Source: a virus. Taken from it: 49,837 bases of DNA. The stretch lies in the IMG/VR virus record IMGVR_UViG_3300045988_175398, one strand, 5' to 3'. Positions 9,291 to 49,837 of this stretch are shown one piece after another. The position numbers and the translations under genes are program-made. The stretch's first letter is position 1. Every line of letters begins with the position of its first letter. The notes beneath the pieces are model-generated. The model saw only the letters and a list, made by a program, of their open reading frames with translations. It was not told the DNA's origin and did not search any database.

Positions 9291-9806
9291 ATGAAAATTG
9301 GAGATATCAAAACAATTCTTGACAGCGGTGATGTGCAAAGATATCACGCCATGCCGTGTGTCAGGGATAAGCAAACAAATTCACAGCACCAATGGCGAGC
9401 ATCTATGATTCTTGGCTTCATCTATAACAAGCCAATATCTTATCAGATGCTTATGGCTTGCCTGCTGCATGACTTTTATGAGATATTCACAGGCGATATC
9501 CCGTCAACTGTAAAATGGGAGCATCCAGAGATTAAGAAGATTGTTGATAGCATTGAAGAGGATTTGGCTATGGCTCACGAAATGTATGTGCCAAGCCAAG
9601 AAGAAAAGGATGCAATCAAGATTGCTGACTGTCTTGAGATGATAACATTTTTGGCTGAGAATACTTCAATTGTTAATTCTGCCAAAGCTCACAAAACTAT
9701 GCTGAATCATATTGAGTGCATTCTTAACAAAGAACAGTACAAATTCAAGCAAGTTTTCAATTCAGATAACATTTACAAAATTGTCGGAGAATACAGTGCA
9801 AGATAG
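9291..9806 (+). CDS. HD-domain phosphohydrolase (YfbR-like 5'-deoxynucleotidase)
   Basis: RYHAMP...H...LLHDFYEIFTGDIP: H, HD, D metal ligands in YfbR-like order; 171 aa. Confidence 0.65.
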   Translation: MKIGDIKTILDSGDVQRYHAMPCVRDKQTNSQHQWRASMILGFIYNKPISYQMLMACLLHDFYEIFTGDIPSTVKWEHPEIKKIVDSIEEDLAMAHEMYVPSQEEKDAIKIADCLEMITFLAENTSIVNSAKAHKTMLNHIECILNKEQYKFKQVFNSDNIYKIVGEYSAR

Positions 9807-10737
9807 ATTACAAATTTGGGGTGCTGGAATGGCAGGGCTTATAGCTGCCAATGTTCTAAGAAAGCACAACCCGATTGTTTATGAAGCAAAATCAGAGCTG
9901 CCTCATAATCATAAAGCCCTTTTGAGATTTAGAACAGATAAAGTGTCGATTGCTACCGGCATTCCATTCAAGAAAGTTAGCATCCGAAAGGCTATATGGC
10001 ACGATGGTAAACTTTACAACGAAAGCAATTTGAAATTTGATAACCTTTATTCCCAGAAAGTCACAGGAACAGTTGCCAAGCGCAGCATCGAGAATTTCCA
10101 TGGTGAAGTTCGCTATATAGCCCCGCACGATTTTGTTGAAAGATTGGCTGAGGGTGTTGAGATTGAATACAATCATAAAGTTGAACAACCAAGTGGTGGT
10201 GTTGCAATTTCAACCTTGCCTATGCCGTTGAATATGAAAATTTCTGGATTGGCTGACAGCACCAAGTATGAATGCAAAGAAATATGTTCTGTGAATTTTT
10301 TCATTGAAGAGCCATTCGTGGATGTTTATCAGACCATTTATGATGTTGATGAGAACACACCATTTTACCGATTGAGCATTTCTGGCAATGAAGGAATTTT
10401 TGAGGGAAGAAAAGAAGTGATTGATGCTTTGTCTGAAAAAGACCCTAATTTCAATTTAGTCAGACCAATTTTAAGGGAATATTTTGGCATAAAAGATGCT
10501 GAATTTACAATCCCTGCAAAGGTTGTTCAGCCACTTGGAAAAATTATTCCTGTGGATGATACAGCCCGCAGAAACAACATTCTTAATTTAAGCCGCGAAA
10601 GGCAAATTTATTCACTTGGCAGATTTGCAACTTGGCGGCAAATTATGCTTGATGATGTGATTGGTGACATTGATGTCATTGAAAAAATCATGAAGCAAGA
10701 CAATTATAACAAAACATTGTACATGTGTAACAGATGA
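9796..10737 (+). CDS. FAD/NAD(P)-binding Rossmann-fold protein (flavoenzyme, function unknown)
   Basis: N-terminal IWGAGMAGLIAANVL (GxGxxG dinucleotide-binding beta-alpha-beta); GTG start at 9796 with GGAGA SD proposed because the first in-frame ATG candidates either lie far upstream (9712, deep overlap) or truncate the Rossmann motif. Confidence 0.45.
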   Translation: MQDRLQIWGAGMAGLIAANVLRKHNPIVYEAKSELPHNHKALLRFRTDKVSIATGIPFKKVSIRKAIWHDGKLYNESNLKFDNLYSQKVTGTVAKRSIENFHGEVRYIAPHDFVERLAEGVEIEYNHKVEQPSGGVAISTLPMPLNMKISGLADSTKYECKEICSVNFFIEEPFVDVYQTIYDVDENTPFYRLSISGNEGIFEGRKEVIDALSEKDPNFNLVRPILREYFGIKDAEFTIPAKVVQPLGKIIPVDDTARRNNILNLSRERQIYSLGRFATWRQIMLDDVIGDIDVIEKIMKQDNYNKTLYMCNR

Positions 10738-10748
10738 AAGGAAACACC

Positions 10749-11351
10749 ATGGCTTCACCAAGAAAAAAGAAGATGGCAAAGTATATGATTGATGATTTGC
10801 TAGCCATCGCAAAGAAACAGATTATCACACTCAATCCTTGTCTTGATTTGAAAGCTGTTTTGCAAAAAATGGCTCAGGAATATGCAGATGTCCAAAAAGA
10901 AATTTTGATAAAACATTTTCCTCAAGATGAAATGGAAATTTTGGCAAAATATAAAAAGGCTTATATTCAGCAGAGCTTTGATTTGCCTCATGCAGGATAT
11001 ACAGGGCAGCTCGGGATTCTTCTTCCTGAAAGTTGGCGATGGAATTTCAGTGATGCAATATATGAAGAAAACCAAAGCAAATATGGAAATATGGTTGATG
11101 AAGAAAAACAGAAGATTAACAAAGAGCTTGAGCTCCAGTTGAAGCCGTACAAGAATCTTCTCAATTCAGTTGGCTATCTTGAAGATGTCATCAAGCATTG
11201 GAACAACAAGGAGGTGGAAGAATACATCTCAAAAAAGTCTGAATGTATAGTTTGCACAGCCTTGGTGACTTTAACTGATGCTGATGTAAAAATCATCAAA
11301 ATGAATGAAAAATTGTTGCAGGAGAAAGAAAATGGAAGTTCGGTTAATTAA
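10749..11351 (+). CDS. hypothetical protein (200 aa)
   Basis: ORF track 10734..11351; ATG at 10749 matches the conserved leader (tgaaaggaaacaccATG). Confidence 0.5.
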   Translation: MASPRKKKMAKYMIDDLLAIAKKQIITLNPCLDLKAVLQKMAQEYADVQKEILIKHFPQDEMEILAKYKKAYIQQSFDLPHAGYTGQLGILLPESWRWNFSDAIYEENQSKYGNMVDEEKQKINKELELQLKPYKNLLNSVGYLEDVIKHWNNKEVEEYISKKSECIVCTALVTLTDADVKIIKMNEKLLQEKENGSSVN

Positions 11352-12057
11352 CTACACCAAAGATGCAGTTGACACACTGCTTTACACGAAAAGCACACGC
11401 CTTGAACTTGGCAAAGAAACAGAAAATAAAATCAAAGCAATGTCAGAAGAAGAAAAGATGGCTGAGCTTGATTATATGAGCAAGACTGTTCCAAGCTCTT
11501 GGGAATTTGTAGATTACATTTTTGAAATCAGAGGTGTGAGCCGTGCATTCACACACCAATTTGTCAGAACTCGTACAGGCTCATACGCACAGCAGACCAT
11601 GCGAATGCTGAATATGGAAAATTTTGACTATGTCAAGAACTATACTTTTGGTGGCAATGGTTTGGCAAGCCAAATTTATGACAAGACCATGGCTGATATC
11701 AATGAAGCATACAAGAAGATGATTGAGCTTGGCATTCCAGAAGAAGATGCAAGGGGCGTTTTGCCGACTAATATTTGCACAAATATCATTGCCAAATTTA
11801 ATTTAAGAACTTTGGCTGAGTTGGCAAAATCTCGCACAGGCTATCGCACACAGAATGAATACAGACAGGTGTTTGATGAGATGATAAAGAGAGTTGTAGA
11901 AGTCCATCCGTGGGCTGAGAAATTCTTAATTTCACATAAAACAGAAGCAGCCATGGGAATGGATAAGTTTATCAATGGTGTTCTGGAAAAGGGTGCTGTC
12001 ACCAAAGATGAAGCTGTTGCTGCTCGCAAGCTTCTTGACATTTTGAGAAAGGAATAG
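11332..12057 (+). CDS. thyX: ThyX-family flavin-dependent thymidylate synthase-like protein
   Basis: RAFTHQFVRTRTGSYAQQTMR aligns to the ThyX signature (RHRx7S region) but with RHR replaced by RTR; 241 aa; start at 11332 (MEVRLINYTKD) with GGAGAAAG SD. Confidence 0.6.
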   Translation: MEVRLINYTKDAVDTLLYTKSTRLELGKETENKIKAMSEEEKMAELDYMSKTVPSSWEFVDYIFEIRGVSRAFTHQFVRTRTGSYAQQTMRMLNMENFDYVKNYTFGGNGLASQIYDKTMADINEAYKKMIELGIPEEDARGVLPTNICTNIIAKFNLRTLAELAKSRTGYRTQNEYRQVFDEMIKRVVEVHPWAEKFLISHKTEAAMGMDKFINGVLEKGAVTKDEAVAARKLLDILRKE

Positions 12058-12059
12058 CA

Positions 12060-12626
12060 ATGGATGAAGTTATTATCTTTGATATTGACGGAACACTTGC
12101 AAAAACAAGTCCTGAACGGCTTAAATTTTTGAAGCCAAAATTTGGAAGTTCTGTTGAATATAATGGTGGAAAATTCATATTTCTTGAGGAGTTGAAAACA
12201 AAGGAAAATATTGTTGTTCTTGAAAATGAGCATGGTGTTTTCTTTGCAGATAAAAGCAAAGTGAAATTTAAACCAGACTATGATTCTTTTAATGATTCTT
12301 TGGAGTTGGATGCTCCAAATGCAAATATTGTTAAAATTTGCCAAGCTCTTTCTGAAATATATCCCATATACATTTGCACAGGAAGGAATGAGAAATTCAG
12401 AGAAAGAACAGAAGTGTGGCTAACCAATAATAATATTCCATACAATCAAATTTGGATGCGACCTAATAATAATACAGAACCAGATGCAATTGTCAAAAAA
12501 AGAATGCTTGATGCAATTCAAGGAACTTGCAATGTAATTGCTGTTTTTGATGACAGAGAGAAAGTTGTTAACATGTGGCGTGAGAATGGCATTCTCTGCT
12601 GCCAAGTTGCCAAAGGAGAATATTGA
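12060..12626 (+). CDS. HAD-superfamily hydrolase/phosphatase
   Basis: N-terminal IIFDIDGTL (DxDGT motif I of HAD phosphatases). Confidence 0.55.
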   Translation: MDEVIIFDIDGTLAKTSPERLKFLKPKFGSSVEYNGGKFIFLEELKTKENIVVLENEHGVFFADKSKVKFKPDYDSFNDSLELDAPNANIVKICQALSEIYPIYICTGRNEKFRERTEVWLTNNNIPYNQIWMRPNNNTEPDAIVKKRMLDAIQGTCNVIAVFDDREKVVNMWRENGILCCQVAKGEY

Positions 12627-13566: not shown

Positions 13567-14652
13567 ATGCTGAATAATATTAAAGTCCGCACAGAATATT
13601 CATTCAGAATAGCATACGGATTCATTGAACAAGTTGCCAAGACTATCCCTGGTGATGCCATTGGCATATGCGATAGACACGGGACTTGGGGACATGTTCA
13701 GTTTGCTAAGTATTGCAAAAAATATGGCAAGAAGCCTATTTTTGGAGTTGAGCTGGCGACTGTTGAAAATGCCAAAGAGAATCAGAAGCAGGAAACAACA
13801 TACATTTCATTTTTGGCTCGCAATAATGCAGGACTGAAAGAATTGTATGAGCTGGCGACAAAGTCAACAGAGCAATTCTATTACACACCAAGAATTGACT
13901 ACAATGATGTTTTGGGAGTTAGTGCCAATATTTTCATCATTCTCTCTAACTTTACAGACTACATGCGAGAAAATGAGGATTTTCGGAAGCTATACAGCAG
14001 AGAAAATGTTTTCCTTGGTTTATCCCCCAACACACCTATGAATGCCCACTCGTATGCCAAAAAAATGCGGATTAAATGTGCAGCTGTTTCTGACAACTAT
14101 ATGCTGAAGCCGGAAGATTATCCTGTTTATCAGATTCTTGCCAGTGGTGCAGCTGAATCAAATATCAATCCAATCCATGTTTTGGATGAAGATGAATGGG
14201 AGCTGCTTGGCTGGGATGATGATGAAGCAATTGCCAATGCAAATTTCATAGCTGCTGAGTGTAATGCTGAATTGCCAAAAGCAGAAATGGTGCATCCGCC
14301 TCGTCCTGACACTTTGTACAATATGTGTGTCAAAGGTGCCAAAGAAAGAGGTGTTGACTTAACAAATGAAGTGTACAAAGCAAGATTAAAGAAAGAGTTG
14401 ACTCTTATTGAAAGAAAAGGATTTGAAGATTATTTTTATTTGATTGCCGACTTGTGCAAATTCAGCAAGAAACATATGCTTGTTGGTCCAGCCCGTGGCA
14501 GCTCATCAGGAAGTCTTGTTTGCTATCTTTTGTATATCACTGATATTGACCCAATTCCATATGATTTGATTTTTGAACGCTTTATTGACATCAATCGTGG
14601 AGGGCACAGATTCAATAAAAAAGTTGTTGACTTTTTTGAAAATATGGAATAA
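13567..14652 (+). CDS. dnaE: DNA polymerase III alpha (DnaE-type) N-terminal fragment: degenerate PHP domain + start of palm
   Basis: GPARGSSSGSLVCYLLYITDIDPIPYDLIFERFI matches the conserved DnaE segment GRGSxAGSLVAYxLxITDxDPL...FERFLNPER; ORF stops just before the catalytic PDxDxDF motif. Confidence 0.7.
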   Translation: MLNNIKVRTEYSFRIAYGFIEQVAKTIPGDAIGICDRHGTWGHVQFAKYCKKYGKKPIFGVELATVENAKENQKQETTYISFLARNNAGLKELYELATKSTEQFYYTPRIDYNDVLGVSANIFIILSNFTDYMRENEDFRKLYSRENVFLGLSPNTPMNAHSYAKKMRIKCAAVSDNYMLKPEDYPVYQILASGAAESNINPIHVLDEDEWELLGWDDDEAIANANFIAAECNAELPKAEMVHPPRPDTLYNMCVKGAKERGVDLTNEVYKARLKKELTLIERKGFEDYFYLIADLCKFSKKHMLVGPARGSSSGSLVCYLLYITDIDPIPYDLIFERFIDINRGGHRFNKKVVDFFENME

Positions 14653-14684: not shown

Positions 14685-15506
14685 ATGCAAGAAAAAGAAG
14701 AGCTTGAAGAACTTTTGAAAAAATACAATTCTCAAAAAAGAGTTGCAGAGATTCTTCATGTTAGCCAAATGGCAATATCTCGCAAGAAAAGGAAACTTGG
14801 AATCACCCATGATGGTAAGATTCTTGCAAATAAAGATTATTCAAAAAGAATGCAGCAATCAGAAATGATGGCAAATAAATATGAATCAAGAGAAATTTCT
14901 CCATATTGGCTTGGCAAAAAACAACCTGAAGAAATGATTGAAAAAAGAGTTGCAAAAATAAAAGGAAAGGCTGCATGGAATTCAGGAACAGCAAAGAAAA
15001 TTGATAGCACCTGCCAGCAGTGTGGCAAAATTTTTCAGCACTCTCCTTCAAGAAAAAGAAAATTTTGTTCACTTGACTGCAGGAATAAATATTTTTCTAT
15101 TTTGTATTCTGATGGAAGGCTTAAAAATAAGAATAATCCGAATTTCGCTAACGGCGAGAAAATACATCTTGCTCACATTCGAGGTTGCTATGAAAATAGA
15201 GTTCTTCCGGAATATACAAGAGGGAAAAAGATAAGACACAATGGCAATACATTCAGAAGCTCATGGGAATATGAATATGCAATCTGGCTTGAAGAAAATT
15301 CAATTGATTATTTATATGAGAGCAAAAGATTTAAGTTATCAGATGGCAGAACATATACACCAGATTTTTATATACCATCTAAAGATGAATTTATAGAAAT
15401 AAAGGGATTCTGGTATGAAAAAGCGAAAGAAAAATTCTGCAAATTTAGACAGGAATATCCTGATATTAAAATTTTAATTATAGAGGACAAGCAATGGAAG
15501 ATTTAA
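14685..15506 (+). CDS. homing-endonuclease-like protein inserted in dnaE (N-terminal HTH, CxxC...CxxC zinc ribbon, C-terminal PD-(D/E)XK nuclease)
   Basis: RVAEILHVSQMAISRKKRKLGI (HTH); CQQCGKIF...CSLDCRNKYF (zinc ribbon); TPDFYIPSKDEFIEIKG (PD...E-x-K); sits exactly between the two DnaE halves. Confidence 0.55.
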   Translation: MQEKEELEELLKKYNSQKRVAEILHVSQMAISRKKRKLGITHDGKILANKDYSKRMQQSEMMANKYESREISPYWLGKKQPEEMIEKRVAKIKGKAAWNSGTAKKIDSTCQQCGKIFQHSPSRKRKFCSLDCRNKYFSILYSDGRLKNKNNPNFANGEKIHLAHIRGCYENRVLPEYTRGKKIRHNGNTFRSSWEYEYAIWLEENSIDYLYESKRFKLSDGRTYTPDFYIPSKDEFIEIKGFWYEKAKEKFCKFRQEYPDIKILIIEDKQWKI

Positions 15507-17530
15507 TTGAAAAAATTGAAGAATTATCCGATAAAAAAGGGCTTAGCAGAAAAATAATCAACAGTGAAATTTCATCATTGCTGTCTTGTGATAAAGTTTT
15601 CAAAAAGATTGAAGCTATGTATGAAGAAGGAAAGAAAATTGATTCTGATAAAATGAATTTTTGGACGCTTTATCTTCTTGGAATAACAGACAAAGAGCCT
15701 ACTCAGCAGCAGCTTGATGAGTGTTTCTATTACATTCCTGACTATCCTGATATTGATATTGACTTCCAAGACACCAAGCGTGATATGGTTTTTGAATACT
15801 TAAAAGAAACATATGGTGCAGAATGCGTTGCCAGAATTGGTTCGGTTAGCCGTTACAAAGCAAAATCTACAATCACTGATGTGGCAAAGGAATTGCAAAT
15901 TCCAGTTTGGGAAGTCGAAGACTTAAAAGGAGCTATCATTGAGCGAAGTGGTGGTGATGCCCGTGCAGCATTCTGTATTATGGACACTTTTAATGAGCTT
16001 GATATTGGCAAGAAAACTCTTGAAAAATATCCGCAGCTGGCTATTGCTGCCAAACTTGAAGCCCATGCCCGCCACACAGGACAGCACGCAGCAGGAACTT
16101 TGGTAACTGCTCATCCATTGAGCAACTATTGCTCTGGTGATGCTCACACAGGTGCAACCCAAATTGATAAAAAGGATGCAGAAGTTCTTGACTTGTTAAA
16201 GATTGATGCTTTGGGGCTTAGAACTTTGACAATCATTCAGGAAATTCTTGACAATGTAGGCTGGACACGTGATGACTTGCTGAATTATCCAATGGATGAC
16301 CAAGAAGCATTTGACATTTTGAACAAAAGAAAATTTACAGGCGTTTTTCAGTTTGAAGGAACAGCACTGCAATCACTTTGTGGACAGATTGATGTCAATG
16401 AGTTTGAAGACATCGTCAGCATCACAGCTTTGGCTCGACCTGGACCATTGGTCAGTGGTGGTGCAACCAAATTCTGTGCAAGAAGGACTGGCAAAGAAAA
16501 AACAACCTATCTGCATCCAATGATGGAAAAGCATACCAAAATTACATATGGCATTGTTGTTTATCAAGAGCAAGTTATGACAATCGGGCGTGATATTGGC
16601 AAGCTATCTTGGGAAGATGTTTCTGCTTTGCGTAAAGCCATGTCAAAATCTCTCGGAAAAGAGTTCTTTGACCAATATTGGGAGAAATTCAAAATTGGTG
16701 CAATTGAGAATGGTTTGACAGAGCAGGAAGCCCAAACAATTTGGGAGCAGATTAACACCATGGGATCTTGGGCATTTAACCGTTCGCATGCCGTCAGCTA
16801 TGGATTAGTTAGCTATTGGACAATGGTTTTGAAGGCAAAATTCCCAATTGAATTTGCAGCTGCAACCTTGCGCAATGCCAAAGATGAAGACCAATGTATC
16901 AGGCTGTTGCGTGAGATGGTTAAGGAAGGATTTGGATATTGTGCATTTGACAAAGAAAAATCTGAAAAGAATTGGAGCATCAAAGACAATACAATCTATG
17001 GCGGATATATCAATGTCAAAGGAATTGGACCAAAGATTGCGGATGATATTGAGTTGAGAAGAAAAGAAGGAAGACCATTGACTCCAAGACAAGAGAAATT
17101 GCTTGAAACAGCTGTTACAAAGTATGACTGTTTGTTTGAAGGCAAAGAAAGATTTGGTGATATTTACGAGCATCCGGAAAAATACAACATTGCCACCAAA
17201 ATAAGCCTGATTGAAGAGTTGGATGGTGATGCTGAGGGTGTTGTGCTTTTCTTGGGCAAAATATCAGAAAAGAACTTGCGTGATGACAACGAACTTATCA
17301 ATGTGGAAAAGCGTGGCGGATATAGAATCAAAGGACAGTCTTTGTTCTTAAACTTCCGCGCTGAAGATGACACAGACAAAATCCTTTGCCGAGTTAACAG
17401 AGACAAATATCTGCAATATGGCAAGCCAATCGTTGAAGATGGCAGAGATGGTGACTGGTACATTTTCAAAGGGCGCAAAATTAAAGGATTGAGAATGGTT
17501 AACATTCTGAGATGGAGAAAAATATCGTGA
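15494..17530 (+). CDS. dnaE: DNA polymerase III alpha (DnaE-type) C-terminal fragment: catalytic palm (PDIDIDF) + fingers/thumb
   Basis: WTLYLLGITDKEPT...YIPDYPDIDIDFQDTKRDMVFEYLKETYG matches DnaE ...LGITDVDPL...PDFDIDF...R..V..Y...KYG; own SD (GAGGA) and ATG. Confidence 0.7.
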   Translation: MEDLIEKIEELSDKKGLSRKIINSEISSLLSCDKVFKKIEAMYEEGKKIDSDKMNFWTLYLLGITDKEPTQQQLDECFYYIPDYPDIDIDFQDTKRDMVFEYLKETYGAECVARIGSVSRYKAKSTITDVAKELQIPVWEVEDLKGAIIERSGGDARAAFCIMDTFNELDIGKKTLEKYPQLAIAAKLEAHARHTGQHAAGTLVTAHPLSNYCSGDAHTGATQIDKKDAEVLDLLKIDALGLRTLTIIQEILDNVGWTRDDLLNYPMDDQEAFDILNKRKFTGVFQFEGTALQSLCGQIDVNEFEDIVSITALARPGPLVSGGATKFCARRTGKEKTTYLHPMMEKHTKITYGIVVYQEQVMTIGRDIGKLSWEDVSALRKAMSKSLGKEFFDQYWEKFKIGAIENGLTEQEAQTIWEQINTMGSWAFNRSHAVSYGLVSYWTMVLKAKFPIEFAAATLRNAKDEDQCIRLLREMVKEGFGYCAFDKEKSEKNWSIKDNTIYGGYINVKGIGPKIADDIELRRKEGRPLTPRQEKLLETAVTKYDCLFEGKERFGDIYEHPEKYNIATKISLIEELDGDAEGVVLFLGKISEKNLRDDNELINVEKRGGYRIKGQSLFLNFRAEDDTDKILCRVNRDKYLQYGKPIVEDGRDGDWYIFKGRKIKGLRMVNILRWRKIS

Positions 17531-21285: not shown

Positions 21286-21522
21286 TTAATCCTTTTCCAG
21301 CTGCAGTTGAGTTTTGCGCAACCGCCCTAACCAATCCCAAAAATTTTCATATCCTTGGTATGGAATCTGCTGCAGTTCTTTGCCAACTTTCTCGCCAGCA
21401 ATTGGCCATTCAATTTCAACTTCTTGAATGCAACTAGAATTGGTTGTGGAGCATGAGCTCAATAATGTCATCACGCTTAGGATTAGGCATAGCAATAATT
21501 TTGGCTTTCTTTTTGGCATCAT
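21286..21522 (-). CDS. o-spanin-like outer-membrane lipoprotein, partly embedded in the i-spanin gene in another frame
   Basis: MMPKRKPKLLLCLILSVMTLLSSCS: signal peptide + lipobox LSSC; ORF track 21286..21564 overlaps 21434..21652. Confidence 0.5.
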   Translation of the reverse strand: MMPKRKPKLLLCLILSVMTLLSSCSTTNSSCIQEVEIEWPIAGEKVGKELQQIPYQGYENFWDWLGRLRKTQLQLEKD

Positions 21523-21652
21523 ATCTGATGACTTCAATTGTTTGAACATCTTTCTTCTTCTCAACTTCTAAAACAATGCTTTTCTTGACTGAAAAATAAA
21601 GTGTGGCGAAAAAGCCTACAACCAAAATAATGGCAATCAGTTTACTCCACAT
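21434..21652 (-). CDS. i-spanin-like protein (N-terminal TM anchor)
   Basis: MWSKLIAIILVVGFFATLYF TM segment, charged periplasmic part; immediately downstream of the holin/endolysin. Confidence 0.45.
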   Translation of the reverse strand: MWSKLIAIILVVGFFATLYFSVKKSIVLEVEKKKDVQTIEVIRYDAKKKAKIIAMPNPKRDDIIELMLHNQF

Positions 21653-23602: not shown

Positions 23603-23676
23603 TGGAGGGCGACACTGGAATTGAACCAGCCTAAAAGGATTTGCAGTCCTCTACATAACCGCTCTGTCAATCGCCC
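23603..23676 (-). tRNA. tRNA-Cys (anticodon GCA)
   Basis: Reverse complement reads GGGCGAT...GGTTCAATTCCAGTGTCGCCCTCCA: 7-bp acceptor stem, T-loop GGTTCAATTCC, anticodon loop CTGCAAA, encoded 3' CCA; 74 nt. Confidence 0.75.
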
Positions 23677-44232: not shown

Positions 44233-44261
44233 TTGACTTTATAGAAAATGTGTTATATAAT
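44233..44261 (+). promoter_or_regulatory. conserved early promoter TTGACT-17-TATAAT with upstream caaaaaagtttagatttttgtaaaataattg block
   Basis: Second copy of the about 45-bp promoter cassette; leader gtaaaggaataaacaATG follows. Confidence 0.7.
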
Positions 44262-44303
44262 GAAAGTGTAAAATGATTAAACAGTTATGTAAAGGAATAA
44301 ACA

Positions 44304-44573
44304 ATGAACAATGCAACTTTAATTCTCCATGCTAAGGCAGCCAACAATATTCCATTGGATGAAGAGCTTCACACCTTTGCTGAGTGGAAGCGTTTGGGCT
44401 TTTCAGTCAAGAAAGGAGAAAAAGCCAGATGCAAAATTGCCATTTGGAATAAATCCATCAAGAGCAAGAAAGATGATGAGGAAGCTCCGCAAGAGGACGA
44501 CAGCTATTTTTACACCAAAGTTGCAGCATTCTTCACTCGTAACCAAGTTCAGTCATTAGATGCAAAGGAATAA
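44304..44573 (+). CDS. hypothetical early protein (89 aa)
   Basis: ORF track. Confidence 0.5.
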   Translation: MNNATLILHAKAANNIPLDEELHTFAEWKRLGFSVKKGEKARCKIAIWNKSIKSKKDDEEAPQEDDSYFYTKVAAFFTRNQVQSLDAKE

Positions 44574-46402: not shown

Positions 46403-46799
46403 GAATTTCATCTGTATCAGCATAAAGCACACATATTATAGCAATTCTGGCTGGGTGCTTTTGTGCAAAAATAAATCAGGATACACAGGCGATGTCAATA
46501 TGGCAGGGCTTTATTCTCCGGAAGATTTCACAGGTAAATATGAGGATGTGCCTGTGGTCAAAATGCATAAAGATTTGGTGAAGCATTATTGCAAGAAGTA
46601 TGATTCTGTGCTTGTTGACAGAGATGAATTCGTCAATTTTATTGCTGACCTTAAAAACTGCAAAAAGCAAGAGAGCATTGATGTGGTCAAGACTTGTTTG
46701 TATAGCCTTGAGTGCATATTGACTTCTGACAGTATTGAGCCAAATATCCGGATTGAAAAGGCATTGGCTAAAATTAGAGAGATAAGGAGCAGCAACTGA
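46392..46799 (+). CDS. hypothetical early protein (135 aa)
   Basis: ORF track 46125..46799 trimmed to internal ATG with GGAGAAAAAG SD; avoids 280-nt out-of-frame overlap. Confidence 0.45.
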   Translation: MTNKNFICISIKHTYYSNSGWVLLCKNKSGYTGDVNMAGLYSPEDFTGKYEDVPVVKMHKDLVKHYCKKYDSVLVDRDEFVNFIADLKNCKKQESIDVVKTCLYSLECILTSDSIEPNIRIEKALAKIREIRSSN

Positions 46800-47011
46800 T
46801 GATAAAATTGTTTGAAATTGGCGAGGAAGTGTCTGTACTTATTGGTAATGAGATATTTGAATTCAGATGCAGCTCAATCCATGACGAAAGATTGGAAACA
46901 AATGGTTCTGTGACAGAACGCCGGTATTTCGGATTTAATTCAAATTCAGGAGTACATATGAGTTTAAGTTGGGAAGATAAGTTGCAAGAAAGGAATGACA
47001 AAGATGAATAA
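46799..47011 (+). CDS. hypothetical early protein (70 aa)
   Basis: ORF track. Confidence 0.4.
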   Translation: MIKLFEIGEEVSVLIGNEIFEFRCSSIHDERLETNGSVTERRYFGFNSNSGVHMSLSWEDKLQERNDKDE

Positions 47012-47855
47012 CATTGTGCTTGATGTACATGGATACAGATGCTTGGCAGAGGTTTTTTACCACAGAAATGGTGAGTTCAAACTGCAGTTGCCAAGAGAAA
47101 AATTGCAGCAACTTTGTGCTGAACAAAGCAAGCGAATTGAAGTCTATTTTTATTTTAACATGAAGTGGTCAGAGATGATTTTGGCTCATCTTGTTGCAGA
47201 GCTGAGGATGATAGGCTTTTCAGCAATTAAACTTGCCTGTCCATATTTGCCATTTGGGCGGGCTGATAAGCCTGAAAAAGAAAATGGCTGCCGAAGAGCA
47301 ATTATCGCAACATTCTTCAAAATGCTGAAAAAGATTGGCATCAATGAGATTGTCACATACGATTTTCATCTTGGCAATCAAGGTGATTCAATTGAGGGAA
47401 TTCTCTTCAAAAATATTAGCTTTTCAGAAGCATTCAAAGATGAAATTGCAACCATAAGCCGTAAGCATAATAAGGACAAATTTCTTGTTTTCGCACCTGA
47501 CTCAGGCGCAGCTGATAGGGCTTGGCAAACTTATAATCTGCTGTCAGCTTATTTGCCGAGCAATCCGCTGTTTTGCAAGCACATGGTATTTACCAAAAGA
47601 AGAATGCAAGGAAATCTTCAGCTGTACGGGCTTAATGAATATGCAAACAATCCATCTTATCAGAGCAGAGTATGCATCATTGTAGATGATATGATTGATT
47701 CTGGCAAGACAATGATGGCTGCTATTGAAAAGGTGCGGGGATTTAAGCCGAAGAAAATCTATGTTTTGGTGACACATCTGCTGAATGATGAGTTCAAAGC
47801 ACCAGCTGATGTAGAATTTATGTGGAAATTCAATGGAGCTGAATATGGCGAATAA
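46995..47855 (+). CDS. ribose-phosphate pyrophosphokinase (PRPP synthetase, Prs) family protein
   Basis: ACPYLPFGRADKP (compare Prs PYxGYARQDRK), VFAPDSGAADRA, VCIIVDDMIDSGKTM (PRPP/phosphoribosyl-binding loop); 286 aa. Confidence 0.65.
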   Translation: MTKMNNIVLDVHGYRCLAEVFYHRNGEFKLQLPREKLQQLCAEQSKRIEVYFYFNMKWSEMILAHLVAELRMIGFSAIKLACPYLPFGRADKPEKENGCRRAIIATFFKMLKKIGINEIVTYDFHLGNQGDSIEGILFKNISFSEAFKDEIATISRKHNKDKFLVFAPDSGAADRAWQTYNLLSAYLPSNPLFCKHMVFTKRRMQGNLQLYGLNEYANNPSYQSRVCIIVDDMIDSGKTMMAAIEKVRGFKPKKIYVLVTHLLNDEFKAPADVEFMWKFNGAEYGE

Positions 47856-48117
47856 GTTGATGGCACCACACATGTCGTTGCATTGCAATTTATGTGGCAA
47901 AGATGTTTTCAAAAACGAAGAGGATTATTTTATGTTAAAAGACGAGATTTGGGATGAAGTCTGTGATAATGATTATGTCAGCAAAACAGACGTCCTCTGC
48001 AAAGATTGCACAGAATATTGGCTTGACAGAAAGTTGACACCAGAAGATTATTCAGATGCACCAGTTAATAGCTTTTTGAGGCACAAAGATGGAAGTGTTG
48101 GATTCGATAAAAAATAA
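47833..48117 (+). CDS. Cys-rich zinc-binding small protein (94 aa)
   Basis: CNLCGKD ... CKDCTEY CxxC pairs. Confidence 0.4.
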   Translation: MELNMANKLMAPHMSLHCNLCGKDVFKNEEDYFMLKDEIWDEVCDNDYVSKTDVLCKDCTEYWLDRKLTPEDYSDAPVNSFLRHKDGSVGFDKK

Positions 48118-48718
48118 AGACATCATCAAGCTCAGCAAAATTTTTAAGCCGTTAATTAACAAATGGATTCATAAATACGACTGGAGCAGAGTTGACAGAG
48201 AAGATTTGAAGCAGGAAGCGATGTTTGCTGTGATGAGTGCTGTCAAATATTTCGATGTTGAAAAGAGCTCGAGCTTTGGTCTTTATCTTGAATATTGGCT
48301 GCATTATCATCTTGGGCGGTATGTTTTGAGGAATGTCAATCTTGTGAGACCTTGTACCAATTATCTTGTTTTTGAGAGTGCAGAATTATCTGAGGTGACA
48401 AAGAAAGCAATTGATGATTATCACAACTTCAGTTATATTGATATTGATAATCCGGAATGCGAATATCAACTTCCAGAAAAGCCCAAAGACTGTGACAGAG
48501 TCATTTGTGGGAAGCAGCTTAAAAAGCTGGCAAAGAAAGAGCTGTCAGAAAGGACTTATGACATATTGTATGGAAGATGCGATGGCAAGTCATTGAGCCA
48601 GCTTGGCAAAAAATACTCTTTGAGCAAGGAGAGAATCAGACAGATAGAGCTGCTTGCCATTAAGAAAATGAGAAAAAAGTTAGGAATTAGCGAAAATGGA
48701 ACAGAAAAATTTAGTTAA
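48089..48718 (+). CDS. sigma-70 family RNA polymerase sigma factor (small, regions 2 and 4)
   Basis: DLKQEAMFAVMSAVKYFD (region 2.1/2.2) and SLSQLGKKYSLSKERIRQIELLAIKKMRK (region 4.2 HTH). Confidence 0.75.
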   Translation: MEVLDSIKNKDIIKLSKIFKPLINKWIHKYDWSRVDREDLKQEAMFAVMSAVKYFDVEKSSSFGLYLEYWLHYHLGRYVLRNVNLVRPCTNYLVFESAELSEVTKKAIDDYHNFSYIDIDNPECEYQLPEKPKDCDRVICGKQLKKLAKKELSERTYDILYGRCDGKSLSQLGKKYSLSKERIRQIELLAIKKMRKKLGISENGTEKFS

Positions 48719-49762: not shown

Positions 49763-49837
49763 ATGAAGAAAATTTTGTTTATGCTGGCTATGATTGCAAT
49801 TTTGGTTTGTGGCTGCTCTGATGATGAGGCAATGAGA
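49763..49837 (+). CDS. N-terminal part of the small lipoprotein-like ORF that continues at 1..109
   Basis: ATG 49763 after conserved leader; MKKILFMLAMIAILVCGCSDDEAMR... Confidence 0.55.
   Translation, partial: MKKILFMLAMIAILVCGCSDDEAMR

Follow-up and report, generated by a model that had tools for sequence, protein, structure and literature searches.

The stretch of viral DNA described here, IMG/VR record IMGVR_UViG_3300045988_175398 (49,837 nucleotides, hereafter the window), carries on its + strand, at 46995..47855, a gene of the Prs (ribose-phosphate diphosphokinase-like) family, the family of TIGR01251 and PF13793 plus PF14572. The longest open reading frame (ORF) at this locus encodes 286 aa and ends with a TAA stop at 47853-47855; this ORF and its translation, both given in a preliminary description of the window, were verified, and all three Prs motifs quoted there are located in the protein: PYLPFGRADK (aa 83-92, nt 47241-47270), VFAPDSGAADRA (aa 165-176, nt 47487-47522), and IVDDMIDSGKTM (aa 229-240, nt 47679-47714). 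Use of the ATG at 46995 gives the 286-aa product, and use of the ATG at 47004 gives one of 283 aa (MNNIVLDV...). The latter is probably the true start because a Shine-Dalgarno-like AAGGA (46990..46994, + strand) lies 9 nt before it but abuts the ATG at 46995, and because most relatives begin MNNIVLDV. Since this AAGGA lies inside the end of an upstream 70-aa ORF (46799-47011), its position suggests translational coupling between the two genes. The Prs-like gene overlaps both this ORF and a downstream 94-aa ORF in a tightly packed rightward block. As set out below, it belongs to the conserved early core genes of a group of ~50-kb phages, is not accompanied by a gene for Namat, and is clearly distinct from Adps, the phage ADP-ribose pyrophosphokinase that works with Namat in the NAD+ reconstitution pathway NARP1.

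The assignment to the Prs family in the preliminary description is correct, with homology far beyond chance. The protein matches PHROG 619 'ribose-phosphate pyrophosphokinase' (1.6e-25, spanning aa 18-263) and TIGR01251 (E 6e-23; 81 bits, short of the curated cutoff of 113 bits), and Pfam Pribosyltran (PF00156, 3.9e-10) is the only Pfam family over its gathering score, with Pribosyl_synth just short (26.6 vs a cutoff of 27) and no match to the Prs N-terminal domain model Pribosyltran_N in the Pfam scan of the protein. The solved structures that match best are all synthetases of phosphoribosyl pyrophosphate (PRPP, the activated ribose required for making nucleotides) at ~20% identity (top PDB entry, Prs 3dah, 2.3e-9), and Prs models and structures alike align over aa 65-262. 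An AlphaFold2 (AF2) model built from 18 family sequences (predicted local distance difference test, pLDDT, 87.8; predicted template modeling score, pTM, 0.81) resembles the E. coli and human PRPP synthetases and has the two-domain phosphoribosyltransferase (PRT)-like fold of the solved enzymes, and its top 50 Foldseek matches in the PDB consist entirely of PRPP synthetases and PRPS-associated proteins (E as low as 2e-11, template modeling score about 0.57). The protein thus has a two-domain PRPP synthetase fold.

With class I Prs (E. coli Prs, PDB 6ASV/7XMU; TIGR01251), the phage protein shares this fold, the R-x-D-K, D-x-H, P-D-x-G, K-x-R, and DD-x-x-D-[ST]-G-x-T motifs, the five contacts to ribose-5-phosphate (R5P), and the catalytic Lys and Arg. 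It differs in its low identity and score, in being found only in phages, and in several elements of structure. In the AF2 model, a beta-hairpin takes the place of the canonical first helix and a helix (aa 34-43) has been added after the 'flag' strand; there are insertions after the DFH motif and ahead of the catalytic loop; and beyond the last core T-H motif there are only ~25 residues, compared with 65 in E. coli Prs. The C-terminal helices of class I Prs, which take part in the ADP/Pi allosteric site and in the interface where hexamers stack, are absent in the alignment, a loss of ~40 allosteric and filament residues. Because of the ~20% identity, the TIGR01251 score under the cutoff, the rebuilt N-terminal subdomain, and the missing C-terminal regulatory residues, the protein is not a housekeeping Prs and instead belongs to an isolated, phage-only clade.

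E. coli Prs contacts R5P via D170, D220, D221, T225, and T228 (PMC9232217), which correspond to D169, D231, D232, S236, and T239 in the phage protein, and E. coli K194/R196, H131, and R96 correspond to K201/R203, H125, and R89; none of these R5P-contact and catalytic residues varies among 9-18 family members spanning 39-91% identity. The first site along the gene (all on the + strand) is HRNGE (aa 23-27, 47061..47075), the counterpart of Prs F35-x-D37-G-E39, which touches the ATP adenine from the adjoining subunit; it has His instead of Phe, and its N25, G26, and E27 are almost invariant within the family. R89-A-D-K92 (47259..47270) corresponds to Prs R96-Q-D-R/K99, where the regulatory flexible loop begins, a loop modelled with low confidence at aa 90-96; R89 is invariant, and Ala in place of Q97 is also found in ICP1 Adps (RADR) and in 7/124 Prs-type sequences. 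D-F-H125 (47361..47369), aligned with the DLH motif of Prs (E. coli His131), is invariant in the phage family, the Adps clade, and Prs alike, and P-D169-S-G (47496..47507), likewise invariant, holds the equivalent of the R5P-contacting E. coli D170 (PMC9232217). In the catalytic flexible loop/beta-hairpin, K201-R-R203-MQGNLQLYG (47595..47630), K201 and R203 are invariant equivalents of E. coli K194/R196 and of ICP1 Adps K185 (PMC13586617), and the Adps signature K-x-R-D-x-x-T is missing. The R5P-binding loop D231-D232-M-I-D235-S236-G237-K-T239 (47685..47711), placed by alignment (PMC9232217; PMC13586617) with counterparts in E. coli D220, D221, D224, T225, G226, and T228, is of the Prs type and not of the Adps type (DD-I-C-D-G-G-x-T-F), and M240, the residue after it, stands opposite the invariant Phe of Adps.

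Two readings of the gene had been offered in the preliminary description, a true PRPP synthetase for nucleotide supply and a lone Adps-like component of NARP1. In the structure of ICP1 Adps, the 'PP loop' (C215-S220) is remodelled, Phe residues (F221/F223) form a cap, and K185 belongs to a catalytic hairpin, features that have been proposed as an annotation rule for phage PRPS-like proteins (PMC13586617). As references we used three Namat-linked Adps genes (from ICP1, PJN02, and Seu621) and E. coli prs, and we defined the Adps clade as the smallest clade holding the three Adps (19 members). In a neighbour-joining (NJ) tree of 152 sequences, this clade includes every sequence with an Adps-type loop; the phage family lies outside it in 290/300 bootstraps and is monophyletic in 200/200. 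Competing hidden Markov models (HMMs) give the same answer, with the phage family scoring 54-72 bits higher on the Prs-type HMM than on the Adps HMM; as held-out controls, Adps proteins scored 30-139 bits higher on the Adps HMM and Prs-type proteins 68-187 bits higher on the Prs HMM.

Three alignment columns fully separate Adps from Prs, and the phage family shows the Prs state at all three. At the E. coli I223 column, the Adps clade has Cys (17) or Ser (1), Prs-type proteins have I/V/L, and the phage family has Ile (7) or Val (2); at the T225 column, the Adps clade has Gly (16) or Tyr (2), Prs-type proteins Ser (62) or Thr (57), and the phage family Ser (9/9); at the L229 column, the Adps clade has Phe (18/18), Prs-type proteins L/I/M/V, and the phage family Met (7) or Ile (2). 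By the PP loop, cap, and hairpin rule as well, the phage family falls outside Adps, with I/V, S, G-K-T, and M/I at the places of ICP1 C215, G217, A218-S220, and F221, and with K-[RE]-R-[TM] in the hairpin. As an independent check, all seven Namat-linked phage Prs-like genes (ICP1, PJN02, Seu621, Listeria LPML1, Gordonia Trax, Yersinia phiR1-37, and Pseudomonas Phabio) show the Adps loop and the K-x-R-D-x-x-T hairpin, and two of two cellular Prs, together with the window protein, have the loop DDM[IV]D[ST][GA]xT[LM] and no Namat.

Namat lies within 10 genes of 97% of Adps-clade genes (bioRxiv 10.1101/2024.02.11.579819). Searching with three diverse Namat proteins (ICP1, Bacillus PJN02, and Klebsiella Seu621), which match one another at E <= 1e-100, we found no Namat in the six frames of the 49.8-kb genome (best tblastn E 0.5; nothing with a Namat HMM) and none in 15 related phage loci (254 kb), so that Namat stands beside the gene in 0/16 genomes or loci of the lineage. 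The absence of Namat from the genome, already noted in the preliminary description, is therefore confirmed by six-frame tblastn and HMM searches, by the closed circle of the assembly, and by Pfam scans of both strands, which detected no NAPRTase/NAMPT, NMNAT, NadR, or PnuC. The six-frame searches rule out a frameshifted or overlooked NAMPT/Namat gene, and the partners in NARP2 (Nampt and Nmnat) and NARP3 (PnuC and NadR) have no Pfam match on either strand; NARP3 has no Prs component (PMC13464706). In Listeria phage LPML1, the annotated prs is followed, three genes downstream, by a 589-aa 'hypothetical protein' (L105:11034-12803) that is clearly a Namat homologue (E 4e-110), so this phage has an unannotated NARP1 pair.

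Taken together, the position outside the Adps clade, the better score on the Prs-type HMM, the Prs states at the discriminating positions, and the lack of Namat argue that the protein is not an Adps, and the lone NARP1 component is unsupported. Like the characterized phage Adps (ICP1 NrsA and the SpbetaL1 and Bas63 Adps), it is phage-encoded, about 280 aa long, and Prs-folded, has lost N- and C-terminal helices, and conserves the equivalents of R87, H121, D161, K185, D212, and D213 (PMC13586617); it differs in having no Namat partner, in its place outside the Adps clade, in its I-D-S-G-K-T-M loop (vs C-D-G-G-x-T-F), and in lacking the K-x-R-D-x-x-T hairpin. A true PRPP synthetase is the better of the two readings, with the reservation that the phylogenetic comparison with Prs and Adps that had been proposed, while placing the family outside the Adps clade, does not cluster it with housekeeping Prs either. 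Two other candidate discriminators failed. The TIGR01251 cutoff of 113 bits is exceeded by two Namat-linked Adps, Seu621 (168 bits) and Phabio (139 bits), and is therefore silent on substrate; standard pipelines will label both of these proteins (Seu621, L007:3842-4642; Phabio, L108:8884-9765) ribose-phosphate diphosphokinase. Fold searches of BFVD and of a PDB copy in which Adps structures are apparently still missing did not discriminate.

The family is small and confined to phages. A word-indexed search recovered only 32 relatives (40-96% identity), mostly on ~50-kb contigs, and when 1.84 billion representatives were searched exhaustively with a profile, three matches fell under 1e-30, all from the family itself, the next being at 6e-20. 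Among 185,579 bacterial and archaeal species (one genome each), there was no family member or prophage copy, and the best matches were housekeeping Prs at 28-31%. IMG/VR holds 11 further loci of the same lineage, and the order of the Prs-like gene, a sigma factor gene, and two unknown ORFs holds even in a relative that is 40% identical. These searches indicate that the clade is strictly phage-borne, isolated, and old. The ratio of nonsynonymous to synonymous substitution rates (dN/dS) of the gene, 0.14-0.29, reflects purifying selection. In some relatives, the gene is far more diverged than its flanks, which points to mosaic or allelic exchange within the lineage: in L099, for example, one of the loci L096-L100, identity is 98-99% for the upstream ORFs, 67% for the Prs-like gene, and 80% for the sigma factor. 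As for close cultured relatives, megablast of the 40-49.8 kb region against phages gave no match, the terminase is 48% identical to those of Synechococcus phages Ssp-JY42 and Yong-M4-211, whose genome plan differs and was no guide to host or synteny, and a primase search gave distant matches only.

The nearest neighbours of the family in the NJ tree are Prs-like genes with the loop DDEICSG[NK]TL in bacterial polysaccharide-synthesis clusters, a link that is weak at such distances. On locus L109 and on JGI contig 3300072015 (P0100, P0117), genes with this loop stand beside genes for Bac_transf, HAD, epimerases, DegT, and a flippase, and members of this subgroup are presumably dedicated PRPP suppliers for ribofuranose-type sugars.

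Other short or phage-borne Prs offer points of comparison. Class III Prs lack classical ADP allosteric regulation and retain the canonical N-terminal helix. The class III archaeal enzyme of Methanocaldococcus jannaschii (PDB 1U9Y, 284 aa) is similarly short, and the sequence similarity of the phage protein to class III is weaker than to class I (E 0.005 vs 2e-9). In jumbo phages and megaphages, host-like prs genes (that of Microcystis phage MaAM05, for example) resemble the window gene in being of Prs type, in lacking Namat, and in presumably boosting nucleotide supply; they differ in being 35-51% identical to E. coli Prs and of full length (about 310 aa), and are evidently recent acquisitions from hosts. 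Some database records call for care in this respect. 'Acinetobacter phage MD-2021a' (L104, CAKLQH020000007.1) resembles a bacterial chromosome contig, with dnaG, hemA, lolB, prsA, rplY, and pth, and several Listeria, Enterococcus, and Staphylococcus 'phage' records with prs 42-50% identical to that of E. coli are probably bacterial contigs too; contigs labelled in this way would inflate counts of 'phage Prs'.

We think it rather probable that the gene encodes a streamlined, likely feedback-insensitive PRPP synthase that is expressed early. The protein would be an active diphosphokinase of the PRPP synthetase family, most likely still using R5P and moving ATP's beta,gamma-diphosphoryl group onto C1 of R5P, with PRPP and AMP as the products. 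Its form is a pared-down one, with a remodelled N-terminal subdomain, a short tail, and none of the elements of the ADP/Pi allosteric site and filament interface; since these C-terminal elements are absent, there is probably no feedback inhibition. Expression would come from the rightward early/middle block, just upstream of the phage sigma factor gene, and the raised supply of PRPP would feed nucleotide synthesis by the host, both de novo and salvage, and secondarily NAD synthesis. A DNA polymerase, ThyX, nucleotidase/phosphatase, and MazG-like enzymes are encoded by the phage itself, and the genuine class I Prs of jumbo phages and megaphages are a precedent for such a role. Fold, family placement, conserved catalytic and R5P-contact residues, purifying selection, lack of Namat, and a place outside the Adps clade are all shown by the analysis; what the enzyme acts on, that its regulation is lost, and what it does for the phage are inferred.

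Several observations weigh against this interpretation. The protein is very distant overall from canonical Prs (~20% identity), its first ~64 residues are unmatched by Prs models, TIGR01251 scores across the phage family (55-86 bits) stay under the 113-bit cutoff when those of Adps proteins run from 88 to 168, and two ATP-site residues have changed (F35 to H and Q97 to A); such divergence leaves room for an altered specificity. The tree was built by NJ on saturated distances, with a Prs-type comparison set picked by similarity to the family. Finally, the phage encodes no ribonucleotide reductase and no PRPP-consuming enzyme, so any benefit hinges on enzymes of the host.

Of the alternatives, the one that survives best is a different acceptor or a dedicated use, in which the enzyme would act on another sugar phosphate, or would supply PRPP to an unrecognised phage transferase that modifies nucleic acid or the cell envelope. 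Its extreme divergence in an isolated clade, the remodelled N-terminal subdomain and the insertions after DFH and before the catalytic loop, the several conserved neighbour genes of no known function, and the nearest NJ neighbours in polysaccharide-synthesis clusters, where PRPP is a dedicated precursor, are all compatible with such a use. We nevertheless consider it unlikely, because every R5P contact residue is retained, no gene of PRT fold or for a glycosyltransferase was detected in the genome, and the sister relationship to the polysaccharide-cluster genes is weakly supported at these distances.

Less likely still, in our estimation, is that a single gene serves the reconstitution of NAD+ and nucleotides as a counter-defence, either through PRPP or through convergence on ADP-ribose or another acceptor with a Prs-type loop. 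Defences that cleave NAD+ or ATP would release ADP-ribose or ribose phosphates and free bases; host hydrolases of ADP-ribose and nucleotides would then yield R5P, which an unregulated phage PRPP synthase would convert to PRPP, and host NadV/PncB, Apt, and Hpt would rebuild NAD+ and ATP from it.

It is very unlikely that the protein is a lone Adps after all, one that would convert ADP-ribose to ADP-ribose pyrophosphate (ADPR-PP) for a host enzyme of NAMPT/NadV type, or an unrecognised phage partner, to complete NAD+ against NAD+-depleting defences. Such a role would fit a phage-borne protein with the fold of Adps, the absence, as in Adps, of the first N-terminal helix and the class I C-terminal regulatory helices (PMC13586617), the R-A-D motif shared with ICP1 Adps, a best BFVD structural match to an Aeromonas phage Prs-like protein, and the weak use of ADPR-PP by KVP40 Nampt (bioRxiv 10.1101/2024.02.11.579819). 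The bootstraps and the 54-72-bit deficit on the Adps HMM oppose it, as do the lack of any Adps-specific state (C215, G217, F221, or the K-x-R-D-x-x-T hairpin), the retention of the Ser/Thr pair that binds the 5-phosphate of R5P, and the contrast between a Namat adjacent to 97% of Adps genes and 0/16 here.

We give even less credence to a catalytically inert, Prs-like modulator of host Prs hexamers or of another host target, analogous to the eukaryotic PRPS-associated proteins: PAP39/PAP41 are among the structural and sequence matches and the Prs model score is under its cutoff, but catalytic and substrate-contact residues that are invariant over 39-91% identity, with the dN/dS given above, are the pattern of an enzyme and not of a scaffold. 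That the protein might be a single-domain type I PRT (e.g., a purine or pyrimidine PRT) and not a diphosphokinase, as could be read from PF00156 being its sole Pfam family over the gathering score and from weak HGPRT/UPRT matches at aa 220-260, is effectively refuted by domain architecture, since those matches do not reach beyond the common PRPP/R5P loop, two PRT-like domains and the Prs-specific R-x-D-K, D-x-H, and K-x-R motifs are present in the protein, and its alignments to PHROG 619 and to Prs models and structures extend over aa 18-263 and aa 65-262.

The genome around the gene is complete. Its first 55 nt (1-55) equal its last 55 nt (49783-49837), the signature of a circular k=55 assembly, which makes it a closed circle of 49,782 unique bases. 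A + strand block runs from 44 kb to the end and on through 1-20.7 kb, and the - strand genes at 20.8-43.4 kb encode structural and lysis proteins and RNase H. The + strand genes encode, besides the Prs-like protein, an ArdC-N-like protein, small ORFs, a sigma-70-family factor, a MazG-like protein, an ArsR-type helix-turn-helix (HTH) protein, a VapE/DUF5906 primase-helicase, a RecD-like helicase, Pam3 gp32-34-like proteins, an HD 5'-nucleotidase, ThyX, a HAD phosphatase, a DnaQ-like exonuclease, a split PolIII alpha, and an SNF2 helicase; Pfam scans of both strands found no other PRT-fold, glycosyltransferase, or NAD-related gene. The preliminary description had placed the Prs-like gene among small early ORFs; small ORFs do lie nearby, but its conserved downstream neighbour, present in all related loci, is the phage sigma-70-family factor (regions 2 and 4; 48089..48718, + strand). 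Between the two lies the 94-aa CxxC-rich ORF (47833-48117; phrog_6053, unknown function), which is missing from all 15 related loci and so is a recent insertion in this genome. PHROG annotation of the conserved neighbours was uninformative.

No PRPP or other riboswitch was found close to the Prs-like gene with Rfam, whose sole match is a tRNA-Cys (GCA) on the - strand (23603-23676), between the tail-fibre and lysis genes, and a scan for promoters and terminators gave counts not above those in shuffled sequence. The region's best sigma-70-like promoter match (TTGACT-17-TATAAT, 11/12), subject to the same shuffled counts, is at the head of the rightward block (44233-44573) and is followed by the 89-aa ArdC-N-like ORF, with an anti-restriction domain (44304-44573).

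Elsewhere in the genome, a nucleotide-metabolism cluster spans 9291-12626, with an HD YfbR-like 5'-deoxynucleotidase (9291-9806), a 341-aa GxGxxG Rossmann protein (9712-10737; phrog_4828, unknown function) followed by an unknown 205-aa ORF, ThyX (11305-12057), and a PNKP-type HAD phosphatase (12060-12626). Two ORFs together encode DNA polymerase III alpha, the first (13567-14652) with the PHP domain and the first part of the NTPase domain and the second (15494-17530) with the remainder of the NTPase domain and the finger; the 273-aa ORF between them (14685-15506), with HTH and phage endonuclease-I-like domains, looks like a mobile endonuclease insertion. A lipoprotein-type ORF (21286-21564) beside the lysozyme gene hints at a Gram-negative host.

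Prs as a phage auxiliary gene is of an already known kind, and what is new is an old, isolated, and trimmed Prs-type lineage in a group of ~50-kb phages; no new kind of biology is implied unless the substrate proves unusual. Since the discovery of NARP1, phage 'ribose-phosphate pyrophosphokinase' genes tend to be read as Adps, and every such annotated gene from a cultured phage in our sample is indeed an Adps with Namat nearby. The lineage described here adds a small (50-kb) phage group that keeps a lone Prs-type enzyme, and a simple, testable rule of three positions (E. coli I223/T225/L229 vs C/G/F in Adps) separates the two types. If the protein, at about 283 aa, is indeed a minimal PRPP synthase insensitive to feedback, PRPP supply would be limiting for some phages, and the enzyme may be of use as a compact, unregulated Prs for metabolic engineering.

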